From contig CBDBBL010000018.1 of the NCBI GenBank assembly GCA_965203125.1, forward strand, positions 11,949-75,948: a stretch of DNA of 64,000 bases, read 5' to 3'. The first letter of the stretch is position 1. The number at the start of each line of letters is the position of its first letter. Made by a program: the position numbers and the translations under genes. The DNA is from Gammaproteobacteria bacterium (GTDB taxonomy: Bacteria; Pseudomonadota; Gammaproteobacteria; CBDBBL01). Under the pieces are notes generated by a model. The model worked only from the letters and a program-made list of their open reading frames with translations, did no database searches and was not told where the DNA came from. Below are positions 1,642 through 62,119 of this stretch, one piece after another.

Positions 1642-1804
1642 TATACCCAAACTACTTGAAGAAGCCGAGACTTTAACATAATAAATTTGAGTAGAATAAA
1701 ATTTAAAAGATTGGGCAATAGCACCGCTATTGGAGAAGCTTTTAGATTTTATTCTGCCGAATTTATGCAGTTAAAGTCCAGTTTCTTCAAGTAGTTTGGG
1801 TATA
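1642..1804. mobile_element. MITE copy B1 (subfamily B: tatacccaaa..cttgaaga.gccg..ttaac...gcaatagcaccgctattg...cggcgtcttcaagt.gtttgggtata)
   Basis: ~163-bp palindromic element with long terminal inverted repeats. The same element recurs at 49225, 49813, 52026, 54898 and 58189, with a fragment at 8207. Confidence 0.85.
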
Positions 1805-2181
1805 TACATCTTCTGTAACGCACTCTCTACTAATAATGCAACATGTCGCTTTGTTCTAGGCAATGTTAATTGCTCTATCATATAAGACACTGTCAATTGC
1901 TCGGCAGCCTTTAAGTCCACACCCTTTAACATTCGACACACCCACTCTCCCAACGCAATTAATACAACACCGCCATATGCTTTATAACAAATATCAACTA
2001 TTTTATGGTCACTAACCAATAATTGAAATTGAACTCGGTCACTACCTAAGCAACCAGCACGTAGTGTCTTCAAATGATATGGGCGTACATCCTCCGACTG
2101 CTCCCACTCACCCACATGACGTGGCGAATAAAAATAAGACAACAAACGATCACTATACATCATCACCCCAACCACATTCAT
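1771..2181 (-). CDS. IscU/NifU-N-like Fe-S scaffold homolog, degenerate (true start probably at M7/M8 near 2160-2163)
   Basis: Aligns collinearly with E. coli IscU (YSDRLLSYFYSPRHVGE vs YSEKVIDHYENPRNVGS). Only the first conserved Cys (AGCLGSD) is kept; IscU Cys63 and Cys106 are replaced (KAYGGVV, KRHVALLV). The last ~10 aa (IPKLLEETGL) are encoded by MITE B1. Confidence 0.7.
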   Translation of the reverse strand: MNVVGVMMYSDRLLSYFYSPRHVGEWEQSEDVRPYHLKTLRAGCLGSDRVQFQLLVSDHKIVDICYKAYGGVVLIALGEWVCRMLKGVDLKAAEQLTVSYMIEQLTLPRTKRHVALLVESALQKMYIPKLLEETGL

Positions 2182-3331
2182 CTGGCACTAAATCACGTAA
2201 CTGCTTAACTGTTTTTATCACATGAGCACTTGCCGCCTTAATATCGTCTAACGTGGTAAATCTTCCCAACGAAAAACGAATAGAGCGATCTGCCTCTAGA
2301 TCAGAACACCCTAACGCACGCAACACATAAGATGGCTCAACGGTTGCTGCATTGCAAGCTGACCCTGATGAAACTGCTATTTTTTCAGTCAGCCCATAGA
2401 GCAAGGCCTCACCATCAACACCATCAAATGATAAATTCAAATTACCAGCAATACGATCATCCATCGATCCATTCAAAGTCACACCATCCAGCTCGCTCGT
2501 GATCAAGCTATGAAACTGCTGCCGCAACTGCAATATATCTAACTGCTCTTTTTGCATACACTGGCTCGCAAGCTGTGCTGCCTCACCCAAACCAACAATC
2601 TGGTGAGTCGCCAACGTACCCGAACGCAACCCTAACTGATGCCCACCTCCATAAATTAGCGGCTTCAATCGTGCCTTTGGTTTTTGCCTCACAAACAAAC
2701 CACCCGCACCTTTAGGACCATAGAACTTGTGTGCACTGAACGATAAATAATCAATCGGGATGTCCTTTAAATTAACAGCTATTTTGCCCACGCTCTGGGC
2801 TCCATCAACATGCAGTAATATCCCGTGAGATTTAACAATATCTGCGATTGAACTCATATCTTGAATAACACCTGTTTCATTATTTACATGCATGACAGAA
2901 ACCAATATGGTATCAACACGAATTGCTTTCTCTAACAGTTTTAAGTTTAAACAACCATCTCGATTCGGCTTGAGATAACTCACTTCAAACCCTTTTTTCT
3001 CTAGTACAGACATCACATCTAACACGGCTTTATGCTCGGTAGCCATGGTAATCACGTGATGTCCTCTACGCTGGTAAAATTCAGCAGCACCGAGCAATGC
3101 TAAGTTATTCGATTCTGTTGCTCCTGAGGTCCAAATAATTTCATCAGACACACAAGATAATAGCTGCGCAACTTGCCCTGCTGCTTTCTTCACTGCTGAC
3201 TTTGCCTGATAACCTAAACCATGATTAGACGCTGGGTTTGCGAATCCTTTCGTCTGCTGCATCCATGGCAGCATTTTTTCCAACACTCGCTGATCTAATG
3301 GTGTCGTTGCCATATAATCTAAGTAAATCAC
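2153..3331 (-). CDS. iscS: cysteine desulfurase IscS (PLP-dependent)
   Basis: 392 aa; class V aminotransferase fold with PLP-lysine context SFSAHKFYGPKG and C-terminal SSGSACN active-site Cys loop. Confidence 0.95.
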   Translation of the reverse strand: MIYLDYMATTPLDQRVLEKMLPWMQQTKGFANPASNHGLGYQAKSAVKKAAGQVAQLLSCVSDEIIWTSGATESNNLALLGAAEFYQRRGHHVITMATEHKAVLDVMSVLEKKGFEVSYLKPNRDGCLNLKLLEKAIRVDTILVSVMHVNNETGVIQDMSSIADIVKSHGILLHVDGAQSVGKIAVNLKDIPIDYLSFSAHKFYGPKGAGGLFVRQKPKARLKPLIYGGGHQLGLRSGTLATHQIVGLGEAAQLASQCMQKEQLDILQLRQQFHSLITSELDGVTLNGSMDDRIAGNLNLSFDGVDGEALLYGLTEKIAVSSGSACNAATVEPSYVLRALGCSDLEADRSIRFSLGRFTTLDDIKAASAHVIKTVKQLRDLVPDECGWGDDV

Positions 3332-4080
3332 AGGCGAACCTTATCAATAATATGTCGGCACAATCCACGCAAAATGTTGATTTCTTTTTTATCTAAACGT
3401 GTCCTAGCAAACAACCGACGTAAACGCCGCATTAAAAACTTCGGATTACCCTGATCTAAAAAACCCACAACTTGCAGCATTGACTCCAAATGTTGAAAAA
3501 AACCTTCTAACTGTGATTGATTTCCTAATTCGCTTAGCGTGTCAGGCTTAACATTATCCACCACAACTGATTGAGCGTGTTCACACTTAAGCAAGCGGTC
3601 TTGACGACGTAATTCATAAGCAATTAACAATACTGCCTGCGCTAAATTTAAAGAGTTATAATCTTCATTAGCAGGGATCGATAAATGTAGCTGGCACAAA
3701 TCAAGTGCAGCATTCGTTAACCCTGTACGCTCACAACCAAATAAAATAGCTACCTTGCTTATCTGCGTTTCTTGCAACAACTGCGCAGTGGCAACATCTA
3801 GCGATTGCTGTGGCAATGACACTGTTCTCATCCTAGCACTCGTTGCTGCAACCAATGTACAATCTGAAACCGCCTCTGATAACGAATCGACAACACTGGC
3901 CTGCTTTAATATGTCTTCTGCACCCGCAGATAATGCAGTCGCCTCAGGGTGTGGGAATAGCTTAGGTCGCACTAAAACAAGCTGACTCAACCCCATATTC
4001 TTCATGGCACGCGCTGTCGCTCCAATATTACCCGGATGAGAAGGACGGTCTAATACAATTTTAATTTGCTGTAATGACAT
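3328..4080 (-). CDS. trmJ: SpoU-family tRNA (Cm32/Um32) 2'-O-methyltransferase TrmJ-like (the ORF track extends to 4119 into MITE A1; the real start is probably MSLQQIKIVL at ~4080)
   Basis: SpoU/TrmH motifs (HPGNIGATARAMKNMG; AILFGCERTGL) and position immediately upstream of iscS as in E. coli trmJ. The first 13 codons of the long ORF lie inside the MITE. Confidence 0.8.
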   Translation of the reverse strand: MSLQQIKIVLDRPSHPGNIGATARAMKNMGLSQLVLVRPKLFPHPEATALSAGAEDILKQASVVDSLSEAVSDCTLVAATSARMRTVSLPQQSLDVATAQLLQETQISKVAILFGCERTGLTNAALDLCQLHLSIPANEDYNSLNLAQAVLLIAYELRRQDRLLKCEHAQSVVVDNVKPDTLSELGNQSQLEGFFQHLESMLQVVGFLDQGNPKFLMRRLRRLFARTRLDKKEINILRGLCRHIIDKVRL

Positions 4081-4243
4081 ATACCCATCACCTTTAAAGA
4101 AATCGTAGTTTAACTTCATGAATTTTGCAAAATTGAAATTTAAAAACTCTCACAATAGCCTGCTATTACTCGATCTTTTAAATCTAATTTTACTAAAATT
4201 CATTTTGTTAAAGCTCCGACGTCTTGAAAGGTGATAGGTATAG
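4080..4243. mobile_element. MITE copy A1 (subfamily A: tatacccatc.ccattcaaga..ccg..ttttaac...ttttgcaaaattgaaatttaaaaactttcgcaatagcctgctattactc...aaatctaattttactaaaattcattttgttaaaactccggcgtcttgaa.g.gatgggtata)
   Basis: 164-bp palindromic element. Near-identical copies lie at 40891, 42075, 48423, 54557 and 61956. Confidence 0.85.
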
Positions 4244-8203: not shown

Positions 8204-8956
8204 TCAACCTATACCCAAATCAATTGAAGATGCCGAGGTTTTAACATCAAGCATTTGCTTCACAAAAGGTAGTGTAATAGCTCGCTTCATTTGTAGCGAG
8301 CACTCACTCAAATACGCCAACAAATCAAACAACGCTCCCAAATCACGATCATAACGTTGCAAGATATATGTTATAACAGGAAGCTTAATCACTAACGAAT
8401 GTCGCCTAGCCCACTCAATCAATATCGCTTGTTTGTCACGATCACTACAATTAGGCATTTTCAGAATAATCGCAGAAGATAACCTTGAGTTCAAATCTGC
8501 AAGCTCAAATGTGGTATTTTTAGGTGATGATTTCGATGCAATCAATAATTGCTTATTATCATCTAAACGCTGGTTATAACAGTCAAATAACGCTTCCTCC
8601 CATTCGCGTGATGACGGTAGCGCATCCAAATCATCCAAACACAAGACATCAAAGTCATTTAAGTTTTCAAATACATCTGGCGCTAAATTTTTCGTCTTAA
8701 ATGATAGATAAAAGCAAGTACGTGAATAATCACCTTGCAGCACGTGACTCACCGCTTGTAATAAATGCGTTTTCCCCGTAGAAAGAGCTCCAAATAAATA
8801 TAAGAAACGATGCTGATCTTTCAAGAACTGCTTGAGCATTTCAACAATTAGCTCAAGCTCCGACTGCCCTCCATTCAATCTGCATTGATTGGTATAGAAA
8901 TTCTCAAATGCTGCTGACTCTCTATGACTAAGGTTAAGCGTTAACTGTTGTGCCAT
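8204..8956 (-). CDS. hda: DnaA-related AAA+ protein Hda (regulatory inactivation of DnaA)
   Basis: 250 aa; Walker A LFGALSTGKTHLLQAV with DnaA-like box layout. The C-terminal ~10 aa (SASSIDLGIG) are encoded by a subfamily-B MITE fragment. Confidence 0.7.
   Translation of the reverse strand: MAQQLTLNLSHRESAAFENFYTNQCRLNGGQSELELIVEMLKQFLKDQHRFLYLFGALSTGKTHLLQAVSHVLQGDYSRTCFYLSFKTKNLAPDVFENLNDFDVLCLDDLDALPSSREWEEALFDCYNQRLDDNKQLLIASKSSPKNTTFELADLNSRLSSAIILKMPNCSDRDKQAILIEWARRHSLVIKLPVITYILQRYDRDLGALFDLLAYLSECSLQMKRAITLPFVKQMLDVKTSASSIDLGIG
8207..8252. mobile_element. solitary terminus of a subfamily-B MITE (ctatacccaaatcaattgaagatgccgaggttttaac)
   Basis: Matches the B-family terminal inverted repeat. 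It forms the 3' end of the hda ORF. Confidence 0.6.
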
Positions 8957-10200: not shown

Positions 10201-10571
10201 TAGTATTACCCTAAAGAACTACACAGAAATAACTTGAATAATTGATCCCTTGTGATATCACGGACAGGCCATTGCGAAAGTTTTTGAATTTGTGTTCTAT
10301 CAAAAGCATGCGGTAAAAATCAGCGTTTTCAATGGTGGTGAGTATAACATGCTTTTGCTACAATGAATATGCTGTGGTTTAGGAACTGCCAGCAAATAAC
10401 TTAAGCGATTGGCGCACAGATTGTGTTCAGGCTTGAAGGTTTTGATTGAGAAAAACCACAGTAATAGCAAGCTATTGCACGGATTTTTCGATTGCTAAAT
10501 TTTCAAAGATGAGCATAAGCTGGGTGATGAATCGTTGAAGTTATTTACTGACAGCTCCTTAGGCATAAGGG

Positions 10572-33985: not shown

Positions 33986-34010
33986 GACACCGGAGTTTTA
34001 ACAAAATGAA
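33972..34010. mobile_element. fragment of a subfamily-A MITE terminus (ttttcaagacaccggagttttaacaaaatgaa)
   Basis: Matches the right-hand terminal inverted repeat of A copies (ctttcaagacgccggagttttaacaaaatgaatttt). Confidence 0.45.
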
Positions 34011-35000: not shown

Positions 35001-35148
35001 TCATAGCAGTTATCATTATCACTGCATAGGGAAGATTAAACTCATTATCGCAACTTTCTATGATTTATTCATAGTGTCAAAATTTCAAAAGATGTGCGAA
35101 AAACCAAGCATTTTATGGGTCTTTTATTAACTGACGAACCTTGTCTGA

Positions 35149-35559: not shown

Positions 35560-35560
35560 T

Positions 35561-40071: not shown

Positions 40072-40875
40072 AAATAAATCTTTATAAGGTTTTTTAGTCG
40101 CATCCACAGCATAGGATGAAAAATCAGTCATGCCGTATTGACTCAACACCGCTTCATCAATTAAAAACTGCCCTGTTAATTCACAATCTTTTGCAGAGAC
40201 AACTTTCATCACTGCATCTGCAACAATTGCTGGATCACGTGAACATTGATAAATTTCTTTTGGGAAATTAACTGCGATCGCATCCGTTGCAATTGTTGTT
40301 GCTGGCCATAGTGAATTCACTGCAATTCCCCACTGTTTAAATTCTGCCGCCATCCCAAGCGTACACATACTCATCCCATATTTAGACATCGTGTATGCTA
40401 CATGTTTTTCAAACCATTTAGCTTGCATATTCAACGGCGGCGACATCGTCAAAACATGTGCACACTCTGACATCTTCAAATAAGGCAAACAAGCATGAGC
40501 ACACGCAAAGGTTGCTCGCATATTCACCTGCATCATCAAATCAAAACGCTTCATTGTGGTTGACTCAGTATCTGTCAATGAAATCGCACTGGCGTTATTG
40601 ATTAAAATATCAATACCACCAAAATGATCAGCTGCCTGCTCAACTCTCGCCTGTATTTGATCACAATCACGCACATCAAGCTGAATCGCCAAAGCATTGC
40701 CACCCAGCTGTTCAATTTCTTCCGTAACCGTATGAATCGTACCACGGAGCTTTGCATGTGGCTGCGCTGTTTTACCAGTCACTACGACATTAGCACCCTG
40801 AGCTGCTAACTTAAGCGCAATGGCACGACCAATTCCTCGAGTCGCTCCTGTAATGAATGCTGTTTTACCTTTCAT
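40063..40875 (-). CDS. SDR-family NAD(P)-dependent oxidoreductase
   Basis: TGATRGIGRAIA cofactor motif, NNAS, and YxxxK (YTMSKYGMS). Confidence 0.85.
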   Translation of the reverse strand: MKGKTAFITGATRGIGRAIALKLAAQGANVVVTGKTAQPHAKLRGTIHTVTEEIEQLGGNALAIQLDVRDCDQIQARVEQAADHFGGIDILINNASAISLTDTESTTMKRFDLMMQVNMRATFACAHACLPYLKMSECAHVLTMSPPLNMQAKWFEKHVAYTMSKYGMSMCTLGMAAEFKQWGIAVNSLWPATTIATDAIAVNFPKEIYQCSRDPAIVADAVMKVVSAKDCELTGQFLIDEAVLSQYGMTDFSSYAVDATKKPYKDLFLN

Positions 40876-40890
40876 CTCATTCCTTATTTA

Positions 40891-41053
40891 TCCCCATCAC
40901 CATTCAAGAAACCGAATTTTAACAGCATGAATTTTGCAAAATTGACATTTAAAAACTTTCGCAATAGCCTGGCTATTACTCAATTTTTTAAATCTAATTT
41001 TACTAAAATTCATTTTGTTAAAACTCCGGCGTCTTGAAAAGCGATGGGTATAG
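40891..41053. mobile_element. MITE copy A2
   Basis: tccccatcaccattcaagaaaccgaattttaac…gcaatagcctggctattactc…ccggcgtcttgaaaagcgatgggtatag. Confidence 0.8.
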
Positions 41054-42074: not shown

Positions 42075-42252
42075 TATATAAGATACGGGTGTTTTAACGG
42101 TATATTTTAACTGCATGAATTTTGCAAAATTGAGATTTAAAAACTTTCACAATAGCTTGCCCAGAATATGACTAGGGCTCGACTTTTTAAATCTAATTTT
42201 ACTAAAATTCATTTTGTTAAAACTCCAGCGTCTTGAAAGATGGTGGGTATAG
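42075..42252. mobile_element. MITE copy A3 (left end degenerate)
   Basis: …catgaattttgcaaaattgagatttaaaaactttcacaatagcttgc…aaatctaattttactaaaattcattttgttaaaactccagcgtcttgaaagatggtgggtatag. Confidence 0.7.
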
Positions 42253-43419: not shown

Positions 43420-44420
43420 GCTTTAAACTGTGTTTGAAATACTTGGTCATTCGCATAATCACCAATTAGGAATGACTTAATATCAAACGCTTGAATATAA
43501 ACTTGAATCACCGATGTTTTTCCACATAAGAATTGCCACAATGATTTCATTTTATCTGGGTACACGATGGTCACATCAATCATTTTATCCAGCTTATTCC
43601 CCATGATTTCCAAAGCATATGCCATCCCACCCGCCTTAGGCATTAATAAATGCTGAGCTGAAAAATGATTTCGTTGCTGTTTTTCCTGAGTAAAACGAGT
43701 CCCCTCTGGAAAGATCATTACAGAAGAAGGTAAGCTCAAAAACTGTTGACAACTTTTCTTTGTCGCCAACACATCTTTACCTTGAAGATGTGGCTTCTTG
43801 CGCAACAATGCTTTGGAGTAACGCTTCATAAACGGAAAATTCAATCCCCACCATGCCAAACCAATCACAGGAACCCACTTTAACTCATTTTTAAGAAAAA
43901 ATTTAAGCGTCGGAATCTTACCCAACAGCACTTTCTGTAACACAACAATATCTAACCAAGATTGATGATTAGCCGTCACCATATACCATTTATTAAGACT
44001 TAAACTTTCAAGGCAACCCTCACCAAAGAACAATTCAAAACGTGTTTTCAAGCTATATTTGACAAAAAAATTATTAACACGACTCCAGCCATTTGCCATC
44101 TTTGTTGCTAAATAACTCAACCCATTCCGCAACCTACGCACAGGCATGATCAATTTCAAACAAGCAAACACACATAATGGAATAGTCCAAAAAATAGTAT
44201 TTACTGCCAATAACAAGACTAAAGTGGCACCTTTTAACACTGCAAACATACTCGAAACAGATGAAAATGTCGATTTTCCAACACAAGGAATTTGAGTAGA
44301 ATCAGATTCAGAAACTCGAGTAATAGCATCCCTATTAGGAGAGCTTATGGAGCTGACTTCTGCCGAATTACTGCAGTTGGAATTCGACCTTTTCGTCTGT
44401 TTCGAGTATATACTTTTCAC
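43362..44420 (-). CDS. PlsC/LPLAT-family acyltransferase (HX4D), paralog 1; the N-terminal ~57 aa of the ORF are encoded by MITE C1, and the likely real start is MFAVLKG at ~44247
   Basis: Acyltransferase motif ANHQSWLDIVVL and FPEGTRF. It is a paralog of the protein at 61995-63002. Confidence 0.7.
   Translation of the reverse strand: MKSIYSKQTKRSNSNCSNSAEVSSISSPNRDAITRVSESDSTQIPCVGKSTFSSVSSMFAVLKGATLVLLLAVNTIFWTIPLCVFACLKLIMPVRRLRNGLSYLATKMANGWSRVNNFFVKYSLKTRFELFFGEGCLESLSLNKWYMVTANHQSWLDIVVLQKVLLGKIPTLKFFLKNELKWVPVIGLAWWGLNFPFMKRYSKALLRKKPHLQGKDVLATKKSCQQFLSLPSSVMIFPEGTRFTQEKQQRNHFSAQHLLMPKAGGMAYALEIMGNKLDKMIDVTIVYPDKMKSLWQFLCGKTSVIQVYIQAFDIKSFLIGDYANDQVFQTQFKAWLNQYWLRKDALIAKGGL
44256..44413. 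mobile_element. MITE copy C1 (subfamily C: tatatactcgaaacagatgaaaatgtcga…agtaatagc.…gctatt…tcgacattttcatctgtttcgagtatat)
   Basis: Terminal inverted repeats and central motif shared with copy C2 at 50611. Confidence 0.75.
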
Positions 44421-47197: not shown

Positions 47198-48421
47198 TCA
47201 CCTCCCACCTTTGCAAACCCAAGCACAAAAAAGACTCAACAACAGCATGATCCCAACTAGATATACAATAAACAATTCCGATAGAGACGCAATGTGCAAT
47301 AAACCAAGCGTTGATGATAAGATTGCAGCCACTAGGTACACTAAAGATCCCATCACTGCATTGGCTACTCCTGCCATATCTGGAAATGCGGCAATTGCTC
47401 TAGAAAAAAAGGCAGGAAACGTCATACCACTGAACATACAAACCAAGAAAGCAATGACAGTCAGCAAGGTTAACTGAGCAGTTATAACATGAGCAATTCC
47501 TATCCCAATCACAATCGTTAAAAATAAAGCGACCAGTATTAGCATCAGTAATCGTCTACCATCCCATGGATTAAGAAGACGATAACCGAGTGTACCAACA
47601 ACATACCCTGCTCCAATCATTAAAGCGATATATCCATAATGTAGTGGTGAAACGTGCCAAATATTTTGAACTAAGAATGGAGCTGATACCCCAAATATAA
47701 TCAGTAAGAAATAAAGCGATCCTAATATAGCACTACTCAAAATAAATGAAGTGTTTGACAGCACTGTTAAATAACGTCCTACTATATCTTTAATCGTTAA
47801 CTTAACTAAATGCTGATTGGTTTCTTGCACCACAACTCCATTGGACAAATAGATAGCCAATGAATAAATCGCGTAAAAATAAAAACACGACTGCCAACCC
47901 CATGTATACGTGAGCCATCCTCCAACCCATGGAGCTACAATAGGACCTACACCCCAAGCAATGGTCATGTAAGTACCCACATGCCGTAGCTTTTCTCCTT
48001 GATAGGTGTCTGATGATTGAGCCCTTAATACTGCATTGACAGCACCTGCACTCACACCCTGTAGGTAGCGAAACCCAATGATAAGATAAATATTATGAGT
48101 ACAACTAATAGCAATGCTAGCAATTAAAAAGACAAAGCTACAATATTGAATAATAGGTCGCCTGCCGATCATGTCTGATAGCATCGGCAAAATAAATTGC
48201 CCAAAAAAATTCCCTAAGAAGAAAAAGCTGACTGTTAACTTTATTAATGCACTAGAGACACCAAAATAATGTGCCATACTGGGCAGAGCAGGTGAATATA
48301 AATCCGTGCCAATTCCGCTAAAAGGTGTTGCTAGTAAAATTGCAAACAACACATACTCTGCTGAATTTTTCTTTGTATTCATTTCCAGCACATCCAAGAC
48401 TCGTTGTATTTTTGCGGGCAT
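47198..48421 (-). CDS. MFS transporter (drug:H+ antiporter-like)
   Basis: 407 aa with 12 TM segments and the MFS motif GxLSDxxGRRP (LSDMIGRRP). The 5' end abuts MITE A4. Confidence 0.8.
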   Translation of the reverse strand: MPAKIQRVLDVLEMNTKKNSAEYVLFAILLATPFSGIGTDLYSPALPSMAHYFGVSSALIKLTVSFFFLGNFFGQFILPMLSDMIGRRPIIQYCSFVFLIASIAISCTHNIYLIIGFRYLQGVSAGAVNAVLRAQSSDTYQGEKLRHVGTYMTIAWGVGPIVAPWVGGWLTYTWGWQSCFYFYAIYSLAIYLSNGVVVQETNQHLVKLTIKDIVGRYLTVLSNTSFILSSAILGSLYFLLIIFGVSAPFLVQNIWHVSPLHYGYIALMIGAGYVVGTLGYRLLNPWDGRRLLMLILVALFLTIVIGIGIAHVITAQLTLLTVIAFLVCMFSGMTFPAFFSRAIAAFPDMAGVANAVMGSLVYLVAAILSSTLGLLHIASLSELFIVYLVGIMLLLSLFCAWVCKGGR

Positions 48422-48422
48422 A

Positions 48423-48586
48423 TATACCCATCACCATTCAAGAAACCGATTTTTAACTTCATAAATTTTGCAAAATTGAAATTTAAAAACTTTCGCAATA
48501 GCCTGCTATTACTCGATTTTTCAAATCTAATTTTACTAAAATTCATTTTGTTAAAACTCCAGCGTCTTGAATGGCGATGGGTATAG
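48423..48586. mobile_element. MITE copy A4
   Basis: tatacccatcaccattcaagaaaccgatttttaac…cgcaatagcctgctattactcg…ccagcgtcttgaatggcgatgggtatag. Confidence 0.85.
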
Positions 48587-48618
48587 CTAACACGATTAAG
48601 TATCAACATATTGATTAG

Positions 48619-48662
48619 AAACTACGCCCAAATCTCGGCATCCTCAAGTAGTTTGGGTATAG
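48619..48662. mobile_element. internally deleted micro-copy of a subfamily-B MITE (termini only)
   Basis: tacgcccaaatctcggcatcctcaagtagtttgggtatag, the terminal repeat without the core. Confidence 0.45.
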
Positions 48663-48675: not shown

Positions 48676-49797
48676 TCAATTTACCACCAAGTCTCGACCC
48701 AACCAATGTTGCGCCACTTCCGCACCTCGGTAAGGTGGCATCACCGTGTTCTTTGATACCTCTGGCTGCCAACCCTTTTTCGCAAGAAATATTGCCGTTC
48801 CACGCTTTTCACTGTACGCACAAGCACCGAACGTAGAGATATTCCAGCGGTATTTTTGAAAAGTTTCAAAATCAAACTGATGCCTTTTCATACCTTTTAT
48901 ACTTGGCTGCCAACCTTCTAGCTGAAAAAAAGTATCAGGCTTACCTTGCCAAACGGTTGTCGGGCCAATTAAAAACGACAATAAAAAACCATCGTTTTTC
49001 TTTGCACTTGACTGATTGATACGCAGATAATTGCTCGAATGCAAATTAACCGCCAAAGTGTAATGGGAATTACCTAGATTATGATGTTGATCACGCGACA
49101 ATTGCTGCCGAAACGATCTCAAAAACCCCGACCTAGATCGATCCTCAACATCTCTGACCACAAAATGTCCGCCCAAGAGAAATAATTTCAGAAACTCCCT
49201 GACATTAACATCCGAGTTATCGTTGATACCTAAAGCGTTTGAAGATGTCGAGGATTTAACATAATGAGTTTGAGCAGAATCAAATTTACAGAATGGCGCA
49301 ATAGCACCGCTATTGCGAGAGCTTGTAGATTTGCATTCTGACAAACTCATGCCGTTAAAGTTCGGCGTCTTCAAGTGCTTTGGGTATAGAGATAAATCAT
49401 AATGTTGGTAACCTAAAATACGATAAGTTGGAGCAGCTCCTGATTTACCCACATATTCTAGCTGTGGTTTATACATCACTAACTTATGCTCAATCACATA
49501 TCTCTTAATAAATTGGATAAGTGCCCTATCCTTACTATTTGTTCCCTCAGGCGTTTTCCCATTCCAAAGCTCAACCAAATAATCTAAAGTACGATTGAAA
49601 TTCTGCAACGAATAAACAACATGATCACTTCCTTGCTGATAAATACTGTCCTGATAACGATCTAAATTACGCACACCCTGCTCAAAGAGACTATTAACAT
49701 ATTGATTTTTATTACTCAAAGAAGCATCAAGATTCACAATCGAGGCCTGACTAAGTGCAAAACACCCCATCAATAACACACCAATAAAAGCCCTCAT
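48676..49797 (-). CDS. secreted hypothetical protein (signal peptide) carrying an in-frame 55-aa MITE-encoded insert
   Basis: Signal peptide MRAFIGVLLMGCFALSQA. The internal segment LYPKHLKTPNFNGMSLSECKSTSSRNSGAIAPFCKFDSAQTHYVKSSTSSNALGI is encoded by MITE B2. Confidence 0.5.
   Translation of the reverse strand: MRAFIGVLLMGCFALSQASIVNLDASLSNKNQYVNSLFEQGVRNLDRYQDSIYQQGSDHVVYSLQNFNRTLDYLVELWNGKTPEGTNSKDRALIQFIKRYVIEHKLVMYKPQLEYVGKSGAAPTYRILGYQHYDLSLYPKHLKTPNFNGMSLSECKSTSSRNSGAIAPFCKFDSAQTHYVKSSTSSNALGINDNSDVNVREFLKLFLLGGHFVVRDVEDRSRSGFLRSFRQQLSRDQHHNLGNSHYTLAVNLHSSNYLRINQSSAKKNDGFLLSFLIGPTTVWQGKPDTFFQLEGWQPSIKGMKRHQFDFETFQKYRWNISTFGACAYSEKRGTAIFLAKKGWQPEVSKNTVMPPYRGAEVAQHWLGRDLVVN
49225..49389. 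mobile_element. MITE copy B2, in frame inside the CDS 48676-49797
   Basis: …gcgtttgaagatgtcgaggatttaac…gcgcaatagcaccgctattgcgagag…gttcggcgtcttcaagtgctttgggtatag. Confidence 0.8.
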
Positions 49798-49812: not shown

Positions 49813-49976
49813 TATACCCAGACCACTTGAAGACGCCAGACTTTAACGGTATGAGCTCGGCAGAATGCAAATTTAAAAGTTTTCCCAATAGCGATGCTAT
49901 TGCTCAATCTTTTAAATCTGATTCTGCTCAAGCTCATTATGTTAAAACCTCGGTGTCTTCAAGTAATTTGGGTATA
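49813..49976. mobile_element. MITE copy B3
   Basis: tatacccagaccacttgaagacgccagactttaac…cccaatagcgatgctattgctc…cctcggtgtcttcaagtaatttgggtata. Confidence 0.85.
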
Positions 49977-50613: not shown

Positions 50614-50787
50614 AGGTGAGTATATACTCGAAACAGATGAAAATGTCGAATTCTAACTTCAGAAATTCGGCAGACATTGAACTCAAACAACCTCTCAATA
50701 GCCGTGCTATTACTCAACTTTTTGATTCCAATTCTGCCCTAACTTCTTATGCTAGAAAATCGACATTTTCATCTGTTTCGAGTATAT
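50611..50787. mobile_element. MITE copy C2
   Basis: tatatactcgaaacagatgaaaatgtcgaattc…ctcaatagccgtgctattactcaac…tcgacattttcatctgtttcgagtatat. Confidence 0.8.
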
Positions 50788-51355: not shown

Positions 51356-51613
51356 ATGACTGAACGCATCCACAAAATACGGCAATGTCTTGAAACATCT
51401 TTAGCACCAGAACAGCTACATATTGAAGATGAGAGTGACCAACACATTGGACATGCAGGTGCGAAATCTGGTAGAGGCCACTTTGCCCTCACCATTAAAT
51501 CCAAACAGCTATCGAAACAAAATAAAATAAAAGCACATCAAATGATCTATCATGCGCTCGGAGAGCTAATGAACACAGATATTCATGCCTTACGCATTAA
51601 GATTGAAAAGTAG
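51356..51613 (+). CDS. BolA-family protein (YrbA/IbaG-like)
   Basis: 85 aa; BolA signature …DESDQHIGHAG…HFALTIKS…. Confidence 0.8.
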   Translation: MTERIHKIRQCLETSLAPEQLHIEDESDQHIGHAGAKSGRGHFALTIKSKQLSKQNKIKAHQMIYHALGELMNTDIHALRIKIEK

Positions 51614-52103
51614 TCAATATCAATTCTTTGGTATTATATAAGTTATAATACGTCCCATCAAAAAAGAAATGAAACATACCCAAGAAAAAACCAATCATTA
51701 GCAACAGCATTATCACACCTGAAATCACACCATAAAAAGCCCACCTCTTCTGCACTCGCTGGAATTCCTCAACACTGCCCCAATGTTTATTCCTCCACGC
51801 CCAAACACTGCCTCGACTGGCTAAGACAAAGGGTATTATCCAACCAATCACAGGAATGAAGCATAGGATGCTCAGGTAAACATTATTACCCAACCCCCAA
51901 ATCCACGTTAGCATGAATGCACCCCAATTCCATTTGCGAATTTCAGGAGGAATGGTTGAGAAATCACCTTTTCCTGAAATATATTCATCGCCTTTAGGAA
52001 TATCAGTTTTCAACGACTTCCTATCTATACCCAGCGCAGTTGAAGATATCGAGTTTTTATCAAAATGATTTTGAGTAGCATTGAATTTAAAAAACCGAAT
52101 CAT
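51597..52103 (-). CDS. small membrane protein, hypothetical; the N-terminal ~30 codons of the ORF are encoded by MITE B4 (the real start is probably internal)
   Basis: Three TM segments in the C-terminal two-thirds. The N-terminus (…NSISSTALGIDRKS…) matches MITE-encoded peptides seen elsewhere in the window. Confidence 0.4.
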   Translation of the reverse strand: MIRFFKFNATQNHFDKNSISSTALGIDRKSLKTDIPKGDEYISGKGDFSTIPPEIRKWNWGAFMLTWIWGLGNNVYLSILCFIPVIGWIIPFVLASRGSVWAWRNKHWGSVEEFQRVQKRWAFYGVISGVIMLLLMIGFFLGMFHFFFDGTYYNLYNTKELILTTFQS

Positions 52104-52188
52104 AGCAAGCCTATGGTGAGTTTTTTTAAATTGAATGACACCAAAAACATGAAGCTAAAAAGCAGTATCTTCAACTGCTTTGGGTATA
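52026..52188. mobile_element. MITE copy B4 (core more diverged)
   Basis: tatacccagcgcagttgaagatatcgagtttttatc…aatcatagcaagcctatggtg…gcagtatcttcaactgctttgggtata. Confidence 0.75.
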
Positions 52189-52197: not shown

Positions 52198-53001
52198 TCA
52201 TTTTTTAGCTACGTCATCTATCATTTTCTTGCGGTTCTTGAAATAAAACAGTGGTCCTGAAATTGCATAACCAACGAAAACAATAAACAACACAACAGGC
52301 GGATCAACTGCAATAAAAATAAGCGTTAACACCACCAGTAACATCGTCATAAATGGCACATGCTGTTTCACATTCAAATCTTTAAAGCTTCGATATGGAA
52401 TGGAAGTAATCATCATAATGGCTAAAAATATCGGCACCACCGCTAACATCACTACAAAAATAGGAGAAACATGAATATGAAAACTCTCTAATACCCAGAC
52501 TAAACCTGCCAACACACCTGCAGCAGCTGGACAGGCCAACCCTTGAAAATAACGTTTTGAAGTTTCTTCTGTGACATTAAATCTTGCCAAACGCAAAGCA
52601 ACAGCCACCGCATAAACAAATGCAATTAACCAACCAATCTTACCCAACGCATTTAACCCCCAAACATACATTAAGCAAGCAGGCGCTATTCCAAAAGAAA
52701 CCATATCTGACAAGCTATCCAACTCTGCCCCAAATGCAGTTTGCGTATTAGTCAGTCTCGCAACACGTCCATCAAGGCTATCAAGTAACATTGCAATAAA
52801 AATAGCAACCGATGCCCAAATGAGCTGTGTGCCTTCTGGATGATGAAAACTAGCAATAATCGCATAAAACCCAGAAAACATCGCAGAAACTGTGAAAAGG
52901 TTTGGCAACAAATAAATACCCTTACCTCGATGTCGAAATCTTGATTTCGATTCATTCTCTATCGACTGTTCACTGTTAACCTTTTTATCTGACTCAGACA
53001 T
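52198..53001 (-). CDS. pssA: CDP-diacylglycerol--serine O-phosphatidyltransferase (CDP-alcohol phosphatidyltransferase type)
   Basis: DSLDGRVARLTNTQTAFGAELDSLSD, the CDP-OH transferase motif; 267 aa with multiple TM segments. Confidence 0.75.
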   Translation of the reverse strand: MSESDKKVNSEQSIENESKSRFRHRGKGIYLLPNLFTVSAMFSGFYAIIASFHHPEGTQLIWASVAIFIAMLLDSLDGRVARLTNTQTAFGAELDSLSDMVSFGIAPACLMYVWGLNALGKIGWLIAFVYAVAVALRLARFNVTEETSKRYFQGLACPAAAGVLAGLVWVLESFHIHVSPIFVVMLAVVPIFLAIMMITSIPYRSFKDLNVKQHVPFMTMLLVVLTLIFIAVDPPVVLFIVFVGYAISGPLFYFKNRKKMIDDVAKK

Positions 53002-54556: not shown

Positions 54557-54720
54557 TATACCCATCATCATTCAAGAAACCGAATTTTAACTTCATAAAT
54601 TTTGAAAAATTGAAATGTAAAAATTTTCGCAATAGCCTGCTATTACTCAATTTTTTAAATTTAATTTTTCTAAAATTCATTTTGTTAAAACTCCGGCATC
54701 TTGAAAGGCGATGGGTATAG
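54557..54720. mobile_element. MITE copy A5
   Basis: tatacccatcatcattcaagaaaccgaattttaac…cgcaatagcctgctattactc…ccggcatcttgaaaggcgatgggtatag. Confidence 0.85.
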
Positions 54721-54897
54721 ACAAAAGAAAAGGCGCAAAGCCAATTCATTGTCTCGACTTAACACCTCTTCGGGGAAACTGACGTTCATCCTAAGAAATA
54801 ATAATCCTGATTAAAACAACTACATGCTTAAATCACCCTAAGCATTATCTCACAACGATGATATACCCACTGCACGTGAAGACACTGGACGCTCAAA

Positions 54898-55061
54898 TAT
54901 ACCCAAACCGCTTGGAGACGCCGAGGCTTTAACATAAGGAGCTTGAGCAGAATCAGATTTAAAAGATTGAGCAATAGCACCGCTATTGGGAAAGATTTTA
55001 GATTTGTATTCTGCTGAGATCATGCCGTTAAAGTTTGGTGTCTTCATGTGGTTTGGGTATA
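54898..55061. mobile_element. MITE copy B5; its right end encodes the last ~10 aa of the Bax-like protein
   Basis: tatacccaaaccgcttggagacgccgaggctttaac…gcaatagcaccgctattggg…gtttggtgtcttcatgtggtttgggtata. Confidence 0.85.
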
Positions 55062-55759
55062 CATTGTGCATACTGACCCAAATCATATTGCAGAATAATG
55101 TGCTGAATCGTTGATACGTACCAAACACCTCTCTCAGAGTAATTACTCAATCCTACCGCCATCTGCACACCCAAGTTCATCGTCTTCTTCTCACTCAAGA
55201 AGTCTCGACGAATCTGCCACAATTGTTTGTGCGCTGAATTACGGTTTAAGTTTAAAAAATAAGCAGCCACGGAGGCTTGCCTTGTTGGAAACTTCTGCAC
55301 TGCAAAACGCCACTGACTAGAACGATCTTTCGGCTTCAAACCACACTGTGGCTGAGAGCACCATTGACCAAAATAGTTATGTGCCTGCCTAGCAAACCGT
55401 GACTGCCCCCATGCTGACTCATTAATCGCTTGCGCTAACACCAAAGAAGCAGGAATGATGTTTACTCTTAAACTTAACTGCTGAAATAAACGACGATTAA
55501 CTCCAACAAATGGTAGATTAAAACGTGCCGCTAATGATAACAACCACATCTTCTCTACTGAATTCAAATGATTGTTGGCTTGCCATAACGATTGATAATG
55601 TAAAATCAATTGGTGCATTTTGTGATACTTCACATTAGTTGCACAAATTGCTGGCACCATTTTTTGAATAAACTGAGTCTGCTTCTCAGTTAGTTTTTTA
55701 GGCGCAGCGTAACTGTATGATGAGAAAATAATACAATAGCAAATCAACACCCATTTCAT
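55028..55759 (-). CDS. Bax-like secreted protein with a glucosaminidase (FlgJ C-terminal type) domain
   Basis: Signal peptide, then ASLVLAQAINESAWGQSRFARQAHNYFGQW, typical of the mannosyl-glycoprotein endo-beta-N-acetylglucosaminidase domain. The C-terminus IPKPHEDTKL is MITE-derived. Confidence 0.65.
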   Translation of the reverse strand: MKWVLICYCIIFSSYSYAAPKKLTEKQTQFIQKMVPAICATNVKYHKMHQLILHYQSLWQANNHLNSVEKMWLLSLAARFNLPFVGVNRRLFQQLSLRVNIIPASLVLAQAINESAWGQSRFARQAHNYFGQWCSQPQCGLKPKDRSSQWRFAVQKFPTRQASVAAYFLNLNRNSAHKQLWQIRRDFLSEKKTMNLGVQMAVGLSNYSERGVWYVSTIQHIILQYDLGQYAQCIPKPHEDTKL

Positions 55760-58554
55760 GCTGAAATCAGACTTTTGGTGACCACCTCTTTCACATCATT
55801 GGACAATCCTTGATTTTGCTTAATCCGCTCTAACACCTGCTTCATCAGCTGCTGTCGTGGCAAATCAAACTTCCTCCAGTAAATCAATGGCTCTACCAGC
55901 CGAGCTGCCAGTTGTGGATTAAAACGATCTGCCTCCAAGATTTGCTGTTGCAGAAAATGATAGCCTGAACCATCAATCACATGAAATGCGATTGGATTAT
56001 TAACACAAAACTGTCCCACCAAAGCACGCACTTTATTTGGATTACAAGCATCATATGCCTCATGTTCCAATAATACTTGTACTCGACTCAACGCGCTGCC
56101 TCCTTCAAGCGAATCATGAGCAGTTGCTTGTAATGACAACCACTTATCGACCACTAGTGCTTGGCTCTGCCAGCGTCGATAAAAATGCGCTAACTGTTCA
56201 TTCCTTTGGACTGAAGCCACTTGATTCAATGCTATTAACGCCCCAAATTCATTAGTCATATTACGTGAACACTGGTACTGATCAACACAATGCGCTCTAA
56301 TTTCTGGCGTCGATGCTATTGCTAGCAACTTCATGCTTGCATTTTTTAAAGCCCGCAGCCCAATTTGATCACTATCATACTCAGCAGTACCTGTCTTATT
56401 TTGCTGACTTAACACCAATAATGAGGACCTTAAAGCAATCGAAATTGCTTGCTGATAATGATCTAATGCTTGAGCTAAATATTCCAACCTCACTTGATCA
56501 AACATAGCTATTAACTCTGCTAAAGTCGGCAATGTTAACAGTCGCGCTTTCAACCCACAGTCAAGTGTATCATCATCCACAATGCACTGGTAAGCATTGA
56601 TAATACGCTGATCAATTTGGACAACCCCACCTTGTTTCAAGCTATCATTTGCTTGCTGAATTGCCCCTATCAGCAATTGATTAGTAATATCCCAACGATT
56701 AAACCCATCTGTTTCATGCTGCATCAGACATAAAAGTGAATCAATTGAATAAGTATAATTCATTTTAACTGGCGCTGAAAAACCACGATTTAATGAAACA
56801 ATGGGCTGTTCATCAACCGACTCAAAAATAAACGTTTCCACTTCCTGCGTCACATGTAATACATTGGAGTCACTTAAGCTTCCCTGTTTCAACATCAATG
56901 GTATTTGCTGCCCATCATGAGTAAACAACCCAATACGCAACGGAATAAAAAACGGCAACTTTTCAGAACCATCTGCTGTATTATCACAATGCTGCTCAAT
57001 CGTTAAATGGTAATACTGTGTTGCCTCATCATAACGGTCTGTCACCGTCAGAATCGGCGTTCCTGCCTGATGATACCAGCGTTCAAATTGTGTTAAATCA
57101 AATTCTGATACTTCGGACATGCAAGCGACAAAATCTTCTGTCGTCACCGCTTGCCCATCAAAACGAGAAAAATATAAATCAGTCCCTTGACGATATTTTT
57201 CTTGCCCCAGCAAGGTATGCAACATGCGAATCACTTCCGCACCTTTGTTGTATACAGTCACCGTATAAAAGTTATTAATCTCATCAAAATGATCAGGACG
57301 AATGGGATGCGCCATCGGTCCTGCATCTTGTGCAAACTGTGCACTACGAATGATCTTAACATCATCAATCCGTGTCACCGCTTGCCCAACCTGATCTTCG
57401 GTAAAAGACTGGTCACGAAAAACGGTTAAGCCTTCTTTTAAACTTAATTGGAACCAATCTCGACAAGTGACACGATTACCTGACCAATTATGAAAATATT
57501 CATGTGCAACAACACCTTCCACTGCAATCAAATCTGCATCTGTTGCAGTTTGTGCATTCGCTAAAACATATTTGGTATTGAAAATATTGAGCCCTTTATT
57601 CTCCATCGCACCGAAGTTAAAGTCACTCACAGCAACAATCATGTAAATATCTAAATCATATTCACGACCATATTTCTCCTCATCCCAACGCATTGCACGC
57701 TGTAAAGAAGCCATTGCATGTTGTGTTTGATCTAAAAACCCTTTCTCCACATAGAGCTTTAAATCAACATTACGTCCCGACTGAGTAATAAACTGATCAG
57801 ATAAACAATCAAAATCACCTGCAACTAACGCAAATAAATAACAAGGTTTTAAGGATGGATCCTGCCAAACCACTTGATGACGCCCATCAGCAAGATCACA
57901 AGCATCGATTTGATTACCATTAGATAACAACTGGGGAAATTTGCTTTTATCTGCTCGAATTGTGGTCGTAAAATACGACAGTACATCAGGACGATCCAAA
58001 AAATAAGTAATCCGTCGAAAACCATGTGATTCACATTGCGTACAGTAGTTGTCATTAGAAATGTACAGCCCGCTTAAAGTTTTATTAGTCTTCGGACTAA
58101 TAAAAACTGTCGTTTCCAATAAGAATGACTCACTGGGTGGATTCAGAATCGTTAAACCTGTCTCATCAACCTGATAATCAGTACCATCTATACCCAAATC
58201 ACTTGAAGACGCCGAGGTTTTAACATAATGAGCTTGAGCAGAATCAGATTTAAAAGATTGAGCAATAGCATCGCTACTGGGAAAACTTTTAGATTTGTAT
58301 TCTGCCGAGCTCATGCCGTTAAAGTCCGGCGTCTTCAAGTGATTTGGGTATAAAACTTGCCCATTGAGCTTAAGCATATGTAATTCAAGTTGTTCCCCAT
58401 TAAGAAACAGTGGCTCATGAGCAGGTGTATGCGCTTGTCTTTTTAACTTTAACTGACTAATAACACAAGTACGTTCTTCGGCTAAATCAAAAATCAACTC
58501 AACTTGGCTGATTTGGTAATTCGGCACTTGATAGTCTTTTAAATAAGTTGTCAT
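55756..58554 (-). CDS. pepN: aminopeptidase N (M1 family) with an in-frame 54-aa MITE-encoded insertion near the N-terminus
   Basis: HEYFHNWSGNRVT…LKEGLTVF zinc-binding and gluzincin motifs, collinear with E. coli PepN. The extra segment YPNHLKTPDFNGMSSAEYKSKSFPSSDAIAQSFKSDSAQAHYVKTSASSSDLGI matches MITE B6 exactly in position. Confidence 0.9.
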   Translation of the reverse strand: MTTYLKDYQVPNYQISQVELIFDLAEERTCVISQLKLKRQAHTPAHEPLFLNGEQLELHMLKLNGQVLYPNHLKTPDFNGMSSAEYKSKSFPSSDAIAQSFKSDSAQAHYVKTSASSSDLGIDGTDYQVDETGLTILNPPSESFLLETTVFISPKTNKTLSGLYISNDNYCTQCESHGFRRITYFLDRPDVLSYFTTTIRADKSKFPQLLSNGNQIDACDLADGRHQVVWQDPSLKPCYLFALVAGDFDCLSDQFITQSGRNVDLKLYVEKGFLDQTQHAMASLQRAMRWDEEKYGREYDLDIYMIVAVSDFNFGAMENKGLNIFNTKYVLANAQTATDADLIAVEGVVAHEYFHNWSGNRVTCRDWFQLSLKEGLTVFRDQSFTEDQVGQAVTRIDDVKIIRSAQFAQDAGPMAHPIRPDHFDEINNFYTVTVYNKGAEVIRMLHTLLGQEKYRQGTDLYFSRFDGQAVTTEDFVACMSEVSEFDLTQFERWYHQAGTPILTVTDRYDEATQYYHLTIEQHCDNTADGSEKLPFFIPLRIGLFTHDGQQIPLMLKQGSLSDSNVLHVTQEVETFIFESVDEQPIVSLNRGFSAPVKMNYTYSIDSLLCLMQHETDGFNRWDITNQLLIGAIQQANDSLKQGGVVQIDQRIINAYQCIVDDDTLDCGLKARLLTLPTLAELIAMFDQVRLEYLAQALDHYQQAISIALRSSLLVLSQQNKTGTAEYDSDQIGLRALKNASMKLLAIASTPEIRAHCVDQYQCSRNMTNEFGALIALNQVASVQRNEQLAHFYRRWQSQALVVDKWLSLQATAHDSLEGGSALSRVQVLLEHEAYDACNPNKVRALVGQFCVNNPIAFHVIDGSGYHFLQQQILEADRFNPQLAARLVEPLIYWRKFDLPRQQLMKQVLERIKQNQGLSNDVKEVVTKSLISA
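58189..58352. mobile_element. MITE copy B6, in frame inside pepN
   Basis: tatacccaaatcacttgaagacgccgaggttttaac…gcaatagcatcgctactggg…gtccggcgtcttcaagtgatttgggtata, 164 bp. Net 162 bp if TA is a shared target duplication. Confidence 0.85.
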
Positions 58555-60812: not shown

Positions 60813-60934
60813 CTTTCATGTCCCATTTTGGGGAACAGGATCAAATGATCAAATGTGCCCACTTAAGCGTGTGCGTCTGTAATCTGCATCATGCAACGAT
60901 GATACTGATATCATCGTTGCTTACAATAGCGTGA

Positions 60935-61891
60935 TTATTGGGTTGTTTGCGCCGTTAAATTACCTGTAATCACACCATCTCGCATTTGTGATGCTAAATC
61001 ATGCAACCCTGAAGGATTATGTGGCAACAAAATAGTCGTACTCTTATCTTTAGCACCAATTTCTTTTAAGGTGTCATAATATTGCGTCATTAACACTAGA
61101 CTCATCACATCTTTCGCAGAACTATCTGGCACACCTTGCTGAAACTCTTCGATACTTTCTTTAAGTCCATCAATAATCGCACGACGTTGATCAGCAACTC
61201 CCTGTCCACTTAAACGCATACTTTCCGCTTCAGCTTCCGCTTGCTTCACTTTCAATATCTTTTCAGCCTCGCCACGTTCTTGTGCTGCCATACGCAAGCG
61301 CTTTTGCTCATTAATTTCATTCATTGCATTTTTCACTTTTTCATCTGGATCAATATCTGTCACCAATGATTTCACAATGTAATAGCCAAAACCAGTCATG
61401 GTCTCACTCAACTCTTCTTTAACGACATTCGCCACCGCATCTTTATTTTCAAATAAGCCATCTAGTTGCATTTTAGGCACTTGTGCACGCACGACATCAA
61501 AGACAAACGATTGAATTTGCGCTGCTGGATCAGATAATCGATAGAAAGCATCAAACACTTTATCAGTCAACACATGAAACTGTACGGCAACCATAATTTT
61601 CACAAAGACATTATCTTGTGTTTTCGTTTCAACGGTGACATTCAATTGCTGCACTTTCAAGCTAATGCGACCACTGACTTGCTCAATCAGTGGGATTTTG
61701 AAATTGAGTCCTGCTGGGCTAATACGCTTAAATTTCCCCAGTCGCTCAACCACAGCAACTGTTTGTTGCTCCACTGTAAATAAGCCACCTAAAATAAGTA
61801 TCGCTAGTAGTACTCCGAGAACAATTAATCCTGCCATAAATTCACCTCTAATCGTTGTATTCTGCGATAAGTATGCTAGATAAATCGACAT
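60935..61891 (-). CDS. SPFH/band-7 (stomatin/prohibitin-like) membrane protein
   Basis: N-terminal TM segment, then the SPFH domain (…FTVEQQTVAVVERLGKFKRISPAGLNFKIPLIEQV…) and a C-terminal coiled coil. Confidence 0.8.
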   Translation of the reverse strand: MSIYLAYLSQNTTIRGEFMAGLIVLGVLLAILILGGLFTVEQQTVAVVERLGKFKRISPAGLNFKIPLIEQVSGRISLKVQQLNVTVETKTQDNVFVKIMVAVQFHVLTDKVFDAFYRLSDPAAQIQSFVFDVVRAQVPKMQLDGLFENKDAVANVVKEELSETMTGFGYYIVKSLVTDIDPDEKVKNAMNEINEQKRLRMAAQERGEAEKILKVKQAEAEAESMRLSGQGVADQRRAIIDGLKESIEEFQQGVPDSSAKDVMSLVLMTQYYDTLKEIGAKDKSTTILLPHNPSGLHDLASQMRDGVITGNLTAQTTQ

Positions 61892-61955
61892 ATCGCAATC
61901 AAGTGCTTATAATTTCAAACTAAAATTAAGGAACGCGTACAAAAACCATGCTGAC

Positions 61956-62119
61956 TATACCCATCACCTTTCAAGACGCCGGAGTTTTAACAAAATGAAT
62001 TTTAGAAAAATTAAATTTAAAAAATCGAGTAATAGCAAGCTATTGCGAAAGTTTTTACATTTCAATTTTGCAAAATTTATGAAGTTAAAATTCGGTTTCT
62101 TGAATGGTGATGGGTATAG
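61956..62119. mobile_element. MITE copy A6; it supplies the ATG and first ~13 codons of the downstream acyltransferase
   Basis: tatacccatcacctttcaagacgccggagttttaac…cgagtaatagcaagctattgcg…cggtttcttgaatggtgatgggtatag. Confidence 0.85.

Follow-up and report, generated by a model that had tools for sequence, protein, structure and literature searches.

Palindromic miniature elements with IS630-like ends, located between and within the genes of a gammaproteobacterial chromosome

The stretch of DNA analyzed here (hereafter the window) comprises 64,000 nucleotides, corresponding to positions 11,949 to 75,948 of contig CBDBBL010000018.1 in the assembly GCA_965203125.1 of a Gammaproteobacteria bacterium. 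It represents an ordinary gammaproteobacterial chromosome and contains iscS/iscU, gltX, hda, rpsA, cmk, secDF, yajC, tgt, trxB, aspS, mutY, pepN, hemC, five tRNA genes, and a VgrG locus. Distributed among these genes are 14 full-length copies (163-164 bp) of a palindromic element that forms three subfamilies (A, B, and C), together with approximately seven decayed fragments (Table 1). These are probably non-autonomous MITEs (miniature transposons bounded by inverted repeats) of the IS630/Tc1/mariner type.

The copies were detected with an nhmmer profile built from seed copies and with a repeat search, and their exact ends were fixed by alignment. Every copy of A, B, and C can be aligned with all others. 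The boundaries are TATA...TATA; the outermost base is mutated in two copies, and all others have TATA at both ends. The most common length is 163 bp in A and 164 bp in B, while both C copies are 164 bp. An earlier note on this DNA, made from the letters alone, had described three near-identical recurring element types, and each copy that it listed was recovered by the profile, the alignments, and the repeat search. Its proposal of a single superfamily is supported by the alignability of all copies and by compensatory double changes between subfamilies in 31 of 70 hairpin pairs. The subterminal box was found in the elements as CTTGAAGA..CCG. The shared central palindrome is also present, as AATAGC-N(2-3)-GCTATT, with a spacer of 2-3 nt instead of the 3-4 nt given in that note. 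The window has 13 occurrences of the terminal pattern TATACCCA-N6-TTSAAGA-N3-CG-N3/4-TTTAAC, against none in 100 shuffles.

The distribution of the copies is uneven. A 6.5-kb stretch contains seven full copies (simulation P ~0.01), which agrees with the hot spot noted earlier, and there are none between 4.2 and 40.9 kb (simulation P ~8e-5). However, the elements do not saturate the window as had been claimed, because full copies take up 3.6% of it. The fragments reported at 8207, 34960, and 48619 were all found, but the list was incomplete and lacked those at 10247-10347, 10434-10519, 33967-34010, and 54861-54898. The occurrence of 95%-identical copies beside decayed fragments suggests that activity was spread over time. 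Two other types of element were considered and rejected. Integron attC sites do not fit, given that copies occur in both orientations, that one lies inside pepN, and that the ends are TATACCC and not RYYYAAC...GTTRRRY core sites; an intein was rejected on anatomy.

Table 1. Full-length copies and fragments of the palindromic elements in the window.
Feature	Coordinates	Strand	Length	Context
A copy	4080..4242	-	163 bp	Abuts trmJ ATG (4080-4078)
A copy	40889..41052	-	164 bp	ATG of short-chain dehydrogenase gene (40063..40875 -) 13 nt downstream
A copy	42075..42251	-	177 bp	One end rearranged (profile aligns 42084-42251); intergenic
A copy	48423..48585	-	163 bp	1 nt before ATG of major facilitator superfamily (MFS) transporter gene (47198..48421 -)
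A copy	54557..54719	-	163 bp	Between convergent cls-like PLD (+) and bax (-)
A copy	61956..62118	+	163 bp	Stop-free frame continues into acyltransferase gene (to 63002 +)
B copy	1642..1804	+	163 bp	Overlaps 3' end of IscU-like open reading frame (ORF) 1771..2181 (-)
B copy	49225..49388	+	164 bp	In frame within ORF 48676..49797 (-), P0131
B copy	49813..49976	-	164 bp	Intergenic; 95% identical to pepN copy
B copy, divergent	52026..52188	+	163 bp	Overlaps called start of ORF 51597..52103 (-)
B copy	54898..55061	+	164 bp	bax-like ORF 55028..55759 (-) reads into element
B copy	58189..58352	+	164 bp	In frame within pepN (55756..58554 -)
C copy	44247..44410	+	164 bp	Directly upstream of YihG-type acyltransferase gene
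C copy	50623..50786	-	164 bp	Between divergent tsaC (-) and yciB/ispA (+)
Fragment	8210..~8253			Solo B-type terminal repeat, 3' end of hda (8204..8956 -)
Fragment	10247..10347			Half copy, decayed
Fragment	10434..10519			Central part, decayed; AATAGC..GCTATT palindrome kept
Fragment	33967..34010			Solo A-type terminal repeat; 93% identical to end of 61956 copy
Fragment	34953..35019			Central, weak (nhmmer E = 0.0015)
Fragment	48610..48662			Terminal, weak (E = 0.02-0.05)
Fragment	54861..54898			Terminal, very weak (E = 0.1), doubtful; abuts 54898 copy

The copy in pepN reveals how much DNA was gained upon insertion. It splits the TIGR02414 match of the gene product, and the 54-residue insertion is absent from all eight aligned homologs, although the closest PepN homolog is only about 53-55% identical. 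The repeat measures 164 bp, but pepN is longer by exactly 54 codons (162 nt); therefore, two of the conserved bases (TA) come from the target. The junctions read GTT T[TA]-core-[TA] GAT, such that a 160-bp core plus one duplicated TA gives the 162 nt. TA is found on both flanks in 12 of the 14 copies, and one base is mutated in each of the other copies. The TA target duplication suspected in the earlier note is thus supported by both the pepN arithmetic and the flanks. The copies have a definable orientation, and we use alpha for the strand that, in the pepN copy, coincides with the window + strand. Flanks read along the alpha strand are asymmetric, being mostly C at -1 (8/14), T at +1 (8/14), and A at +2 (11/14). 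The preferred target may be wider than TA, for example C-TA-TA.

The ends of these elements resemble those of known insertion sequences (ISs). When a 266-bp Enterovibrio element with the same type of ends was compared with annotated plasmids, it matched the ends of IS630-family ISs. The one in Vibrio alginolyticus pVAS19 is 1101 bp in length (TATACCCAATCAACTTGAAGATGCGGG...GGGTATA) and codes for one 343-aa transposase (WP_181382974.1) with DDE_3 and helix-turn-helix domains. IS630-family elements with the same ends are found on Escherichia coli, Salmonella, V. campbellii, and Klebsiella plasmids. Among five annotated IS630-family ISs (DDE_3), the 26-nt ends are identical to those of B at 21-22 positions and to those of A at 16-18 positions. 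An IS630-family transposase is sufficient on its own to bind the terminal repeats, excise the element, and target and duplicate TA (PMC2170065), and this biochemistry fits the 164/162 arithmetic in pepN. Between the two parents that had been suggested earlier, the B ends favor an IS630/Tc1-like one, while an IS200/IS605 parent is not supported, given the IS630-type ends and the TA flanks on both sides. The elements themselves have no transposase, as had been stated; with 163-164 bp, their six-frame translations give short peptides only.

Each copy folds as a hairpin over its whole length (dG, -62 to -95 kcal/mol; z, about -12 to -13). In an alignment of 13 copies, 70 pairs were predicted, 94% of the cells are paired, and the double changes mentioned above affect both sides of a pair. 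These pairing and double-change values were reached by none of 500 shuffles, and slid controls were far below as well. With 31 double-change pairs and controls that never came near, the alignment indicates that palindromy is maintained along the whole length and across subfamilies, not just at the ends. The two strands differ in their pairing. Along the alpha-strand hairpin, there are 81 G·U and 17 A·C combinations, symmetric 'unpaired' positions counted too. The same bias is seen in copy-specific changes (27 from Watson-Crick to G·U and 8 to A·C), and in B copies it runs counter to the local GC skew. In all 13 copies, alpha is more stable than its complement, by a mean of 16.7 kcal/mol, although common ancestry means that these copies are not independent.

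This strand-asymmetric G·U excess may be a sign that a single-stranded form, RNA or DNA, is selected. Given the covarying pairs and the 81:17 ratio, it is conceivable, though unlikely, that a folded form of one specific strand is under selection, as a processed regulatory or antisense RNA hairpin or as a single-stranded DNA intermediate, neither of which would be anticipated for an IS630-type element that moves by cut-and-paste. In that event, the family would be a MITE lineage with an acquired strand-specific structural function, in addition to an RPE-like (Rickettsia palindromic element-like) means of inserting peptide loops into essential enzymes. We consider it rather improbable that the elements are mainly structured RNA or regulatory modules selected by the host, such as RNase III targets, mRNA stabilizers, or translation-start cassettes. 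That view could account for the presence of the asymmetry among copy-specific changes and against GC skew, for the stable strand being sense to the gene immediately downstream in five of six A copies, and for the GGTGAT found 8-9 nt before two start codons; Correia and enterobacterial repetitive intergenic consensus (ERIC) elements are known to act in such ways (PMC10969869). However, Rfam models at gathering thresholds over the window detected the five tRNAs only and had no match to the elements. The orientation of A is not significant because most window genes lie on one strand, and in genes containing B or C copies it is the less stable strand that the mRNA carries. Moreover, the decayed fragments and solo ends resemble neutral decay.

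The hairpins also raise the question of a REPIN-like origin, namely, doublets of repetitive extragenic palindromic (REP) sequences moved as single-stranded DNA hairpins by a REP-associated tyrosine transposase (RAYT; IS200/IS605-like HUH). The hairpin that spans the whole element is in line with such an origin, and the stability of alpha and its G·U excess suggest that the single-stranded form matters. Yet the ends match IS630-family IS ends and not REP motifs. TA is present on both flanks with a 2-bp duplication in pepN, while IS200/IS605-type insertion duplicates nothing. There is no RAYT gene in the window, and the RAYT-like gene that we found near similar ends in another genome is itself interrupted by a MITE. 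Among the alternatives considered, we regard this one as the least probable.

A number of copies are located within coding sequences or reach across their ends, and the earlier note had not reported the in-frame insertions among them. Copies of B and C add exactly 162 nt (54 codons) with one frame free of stops. Those of A add 161 nt; they are intergenic or at gene starts, and none lies within a coding sequence. Six of the eight B and C copies have this stop-free frame on the strand opposite to alpha, where it codes for a serine-rich peptide (YPNHLKTPDFNGMS...SSSDLGI). In the 373-aa protein P0131, this insert occupies residues 138-191. A profile of the 54-aa peptide, compared with 5.8 billion proteins, retrieved only small ORFs that lie within elements on other contigs of the same NCBI/ENA assembly. 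In an exhaustive HMMER search of 1.84 billion cluster representatives, the complete 54-residue insert was detected in ten larger proteins; all of them belong to the same assembly, and one is the 373-aa ORF of the window. Recognizable domains are present in seven of the others, namely, AroA, Na/Ca exchanger, DUF285, UbiH-like monooxygenase, MurG, TsaB-like, VTT/PAP2, and Dxr. This count is a lower bound, and PepN is hidden there by clustering at 50% identity. When pepN is included, at least 11 proteins carry the insert, several of them essential. The AroA insert begins at approximately residue 400 of 427 when aligned to E. coli EPSP synthase. In an AlphaFold model of PepN, which was based on a shallow alignment and has moderate overall confidence, the insert (residues 72-124) is placed between confident beta strands with a predicted local distance difference test (pLDDT) score <50 (25-33).

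These inserts could be viewed as a selected protein module that benefits the host proteins, considering that the same frame is open in most B and C copies and that essential proteins are among the carriers. We find this very unlikely. Two intergenic copies are also open, simulation evidence for selection on the frame is weak, and the serine-rich peptide has no family match and is modeled as disordered. The precedent of Rickettsia palindromic elements (RPEs) suggests neutral or slightly harmful effects (PMC2229807). Because frame retention in simulation exceeds chance only weakly, we treat the open frame as an inherited property that filters where copies persist, without taking selection as proven. 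With regard to annotation, P0121-P0128 of the same assembly are 'genes' of 47-61 aa called wholly within B-type elements, and in the deposited annotation the yihG, murG, dxr, and tsaB-like genes have 5' extensions that run through elements. Such short genes and extensions are probably artifacts of the stop-free frame.

Copies at gene boundaries alter the ends of ORFs in other ways. In the B copies at 1642 and 54898, the IscU-like and bax-like ORFs are out of frame with the open one and end at the TAA of the conserved TTTAAC, with 10 element-coded residues before each stop. For the genes encoding TrmJ, the MFS transporter, and the dehydrogenase, an A copy lies 0-13 nt upstream of the start codon. 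The element end gives trmJ a Shine-Dalgarno-like AAGGTGAT located 8 nt upstream of the ATG, and the same GGTGAT from the element end is found 9 nt before the ATG of the MFS gene. The copy at 61956 appears to supply the start codon of the acyltransferase gene, as the sole in-frame start codons are inside the element. The copy at 44247 has a stop-free frame, such that the called yihG ORF is extended across the whole element; the real ATG (44249-44247) likely arose by a T>C mutation of the outermost base of this copy. At the end of the 50623 copy, TCGACA-N17-TATATT is a promoter-like match that points outward. No enrichment was seen for terminator-like sites.

Elements with the same ends are found in other bacteria, which the earlier note had not considered. 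Searches of 185,579 species genomes, JGI metagenomes, and viral contigs gave no match to the strict terminal pattern. A relaxed pattern that consists of the 26-nt end only (TATACCCAWMNNNNTTSAAGANNNCG) matched at least 78 loci, where approximately 35 chance hits are expected by our own estimate, and many genomes were matched repeatedly. At least ~36 matches have an inverted partner end 69-328 bp away and TATA...TATA boundaries. Among the matches listed, such MITEs are spread over Vibrionaceae, Colwellia, Methylococcales, Rickettsiales, and Verrucomicrobia; these include elements of 266 bp in Enterovibrio, Photobacterium, Colwellia, and Cognaticolwellia, 105 bp in Methylocucumis and Methylovulum, 128-151 bp in alphaproteobacterial metagenome-assembled genomes (MAGs), 164-165 bp in Rickettsiales MAGs, and 94-97 bp in a Verrucomicrobiae MAG. 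The A end is identical to the Methylocucumis end at 25 of 26 positions and the B end to the Enterovibrio end at 23-24. Apart from the 165-bp Rickettsiales elements, which are weakly similar over the full length (nhmmer E about 1e-7 to 1e-8), these elements have interiors unrelated to those of the window. When whole A and B copies were compared with plasmids by blastn, no match was found, and 50-nt ends gave hits at chance level only. No description of this set of same-end MITEs was found in the searchable literature, and a literature search with the end sequence returned primers only.

The loci fetched around these matches were also inspected for partner genes. No protein family recurs beside the ends. 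Candidates for a full-length IS of ~1.75 kb were rejected because the second end was a chance match and the enclosed genes are ordinary. In a Methylocucumis MAG (L021, CAYUQV010000011.1, 1-740), a RAYT/IS200-like transposase gene (MPDHLHCIL) is broken by a 105-bp MITE with TATACCCATCGCC... ends, such that one mobile element is disabled by another; as the victim of the insertion, this gene was rejected as the partner transposase. The elements of L022, L060, L005, L019, L025, L066, and L081 are exactly 266 bp, which gives 264 net nt or 88 codons, and their interiors differ between Enterovibrio, Photobacterium, and Colwellia/Cognaticolwellia. The 128-bp alphaproteobacterial elements are likewise a multiple of three after TA duplication.

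Taken together, these results favor non-autonomous MITEs of the IS630/Tc1/mariner type that are presumably mobilized in trans by an IS630-family DDE transposase, and we assign this interpretation a probability of about 0.85. Several observations weigh against it. Among the window ORFs of 90 aa or more (64 kb in total), none has a Pfam or NCBIfam transposase domain, and the C ends are identical to IS630-family IS ends at 12-15 of 26 positions. Cut-and-paste transposition by a DDE enzyme explains neither the whole-length palindromy nor the strand-asymmetric G·U excess. The closest genome, GCA_964567285.1, keeps the pepN-bax synteny and has no element, but its PepN identity is only 53%. As for effects on genes, retention of the stop-free frame is weakly beyond chance (simulation, joint P about 0.02-0.07), and the Shine-Dalgarno and promoter readings are motif matches, with 36 promoter-like sites found and 54 expected.

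For IS630-type MITEs, the following scenario may be proposed. An IS630-family DDE transposase would bind the ~26-nt terminal inverted repeats, cut the element out, and insert it at a TA dinucleotide that is duplicated in the process. Each element consists of an imperfect-palindrome core of 159-160 bp flanked by TA, and the three subfamilies would have spread in this manner through the genome of their gammaproteobacterial host. The length and coding properties of a copy may decide where it can persist. Copies of B and C could survive in essential genes as a hydrophilic 54-residue loop, similar to RPEs, if the insert is translated; in another frame near a gene end, the conserved TTTAAC supplies a stop codon. 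Those of A (161 nt) would shift the frame; they are found in intergenic DNA or where genes begin, in most cases immediately before a start codon. The element end could affect expression there, as it offers GGTGAT, a Shine-Dalgarno-like motif, and for one gene even the start codon.

The exact PepN and AspS proteins of the host are on record from a single contig only. The next-best matches have 52% identity for PepN and 68% for AspS (Methylophaga and MAGs). Judging from these distant matches, the host belongs to a deep branch of the Gammaproteobacteria and is represented by a single assembly. An AspS homolog of odd length (P0143) has an internal duplication that is unrelated to the element.

Other repeats were found in the window. 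A 182-bp unit repeats in tandem at 6076-6450 (2.1 copies, 98% identical). Its start lies within the 3' end of tRNA-Ser(UGA) (6007-6094), whose last ~19 nt are therefore present again. This duplication could be a remnant of the attachment site of an integrated element. Within the VgrG gene (type VI secretion; 36380..39211, -), a 56-nt segment (37183-37238) recurs with 88% identity at 34911-34966, ~2.3 kb downstream, past three small unannotated ORFs (35149-36370) and beside a decayed MITE fragment. The recurring segment looks like a vgrG remnant or a recombination scar. There are also two paralogous transporter genes of the Vut_1 (queuosine-precursor/vitamin uptake) type (31158..31904 and 34063..34779) and two CDP-alcohol phosphatidyltransferase genes (23926..24513 and 52198..53001).

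Compared with known systems, the closest parallel in the ends is provided by the ~1.1 kb IS630-family ISs, which share TATACCC(A/G)-N6/7-TTGAAGATGC and TA flanks with the B elements of the window. In contrast to these ISs, the window elements lack a transposase and have a fully palindromic interior that is unrelated to the IS interior. The pneumococcal repeat unit RUP of Streptococcus pneumoniae is a 107-bp MITE that inserts at TA and has been attributed to IS630-Spn1 (PMC2229807). It is likewise a short non-autonomous element with terminal repeats that resemble an IS630-family IS. However, its sequence is unrelated, and RUP is intergenic without an open frame, whereas B and C copies can be intragenic and in frame.

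RPEs are palindromic elements of ~105-150 bp with an open frame and are found in frame in many conserved housekeeping genes (PMC2229807; PMC10969869). The window elements are similar in having a palindrome with an open frame within conserved genes (pepN and those for AroA, MurG, and Dxr), which is a likeness of behavior and no evidence of shared ancestry. RPEs have no assigned transposase family and often lack terminal TA, whereas the ends of the window elements point to IS630 and the host is a gammaproteobacterium. The Correia elements, or Neisseria miniature insertion sequences (NEMIS), comprise a 107-bp and a 155-bp class; one has an open frame and occurs in genes, and the other is intergenic near gene starts (PMC2229807). 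Coxiella QMITEs differ in size and duplication (PMC5896051). Like the window elements, Correia/NEMIS have TA duplication, terminal repeats of ~24-26 nt, and length classes that are intragenic or intergenic. They differ in not being palindromic over their whole length and in having no known transposase. The Correia end sequence, TATAG(T/C)GGATTAAC..., differs from the window ends, as do the ends of ERIC. An integration host factor (IHF) site, which marks the 155-bp Correia class, is not conserved among the window elements, with the consensus WATCAANNNNTTR present in one copy only.

MITEs attributed to IS630 (RUP) and palindromic elements inserted in frame (RPE, 107-bp Correia, and ERIC) are thus already established (PMC2229807; PMC10969869). 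What stands out in the present case is the combination of RPE-like behavior with a named transposase family, the presence of a frame-keeping length class that is tolerated in genes and a frame-shifting class that was not found there, and a 26-nt end that is shared across phyla. For annotation, the elements matter in that they extend or truncate called ORFs and probably create spurious genes of 47-61 aa in the deposited assembly. One 26-nt IS630-type end is common to MITEs of unrelated interiors in several phyla. The window elements would also add a second clear example, this one from outside Rickettsia, of palindromic mobile DNA inserted in frame within essential genes; unlike those of RPEs, their ends are tied to IS630, such that their origin and the tolerance of proteins to their insertion could be tested with a known enzyme.

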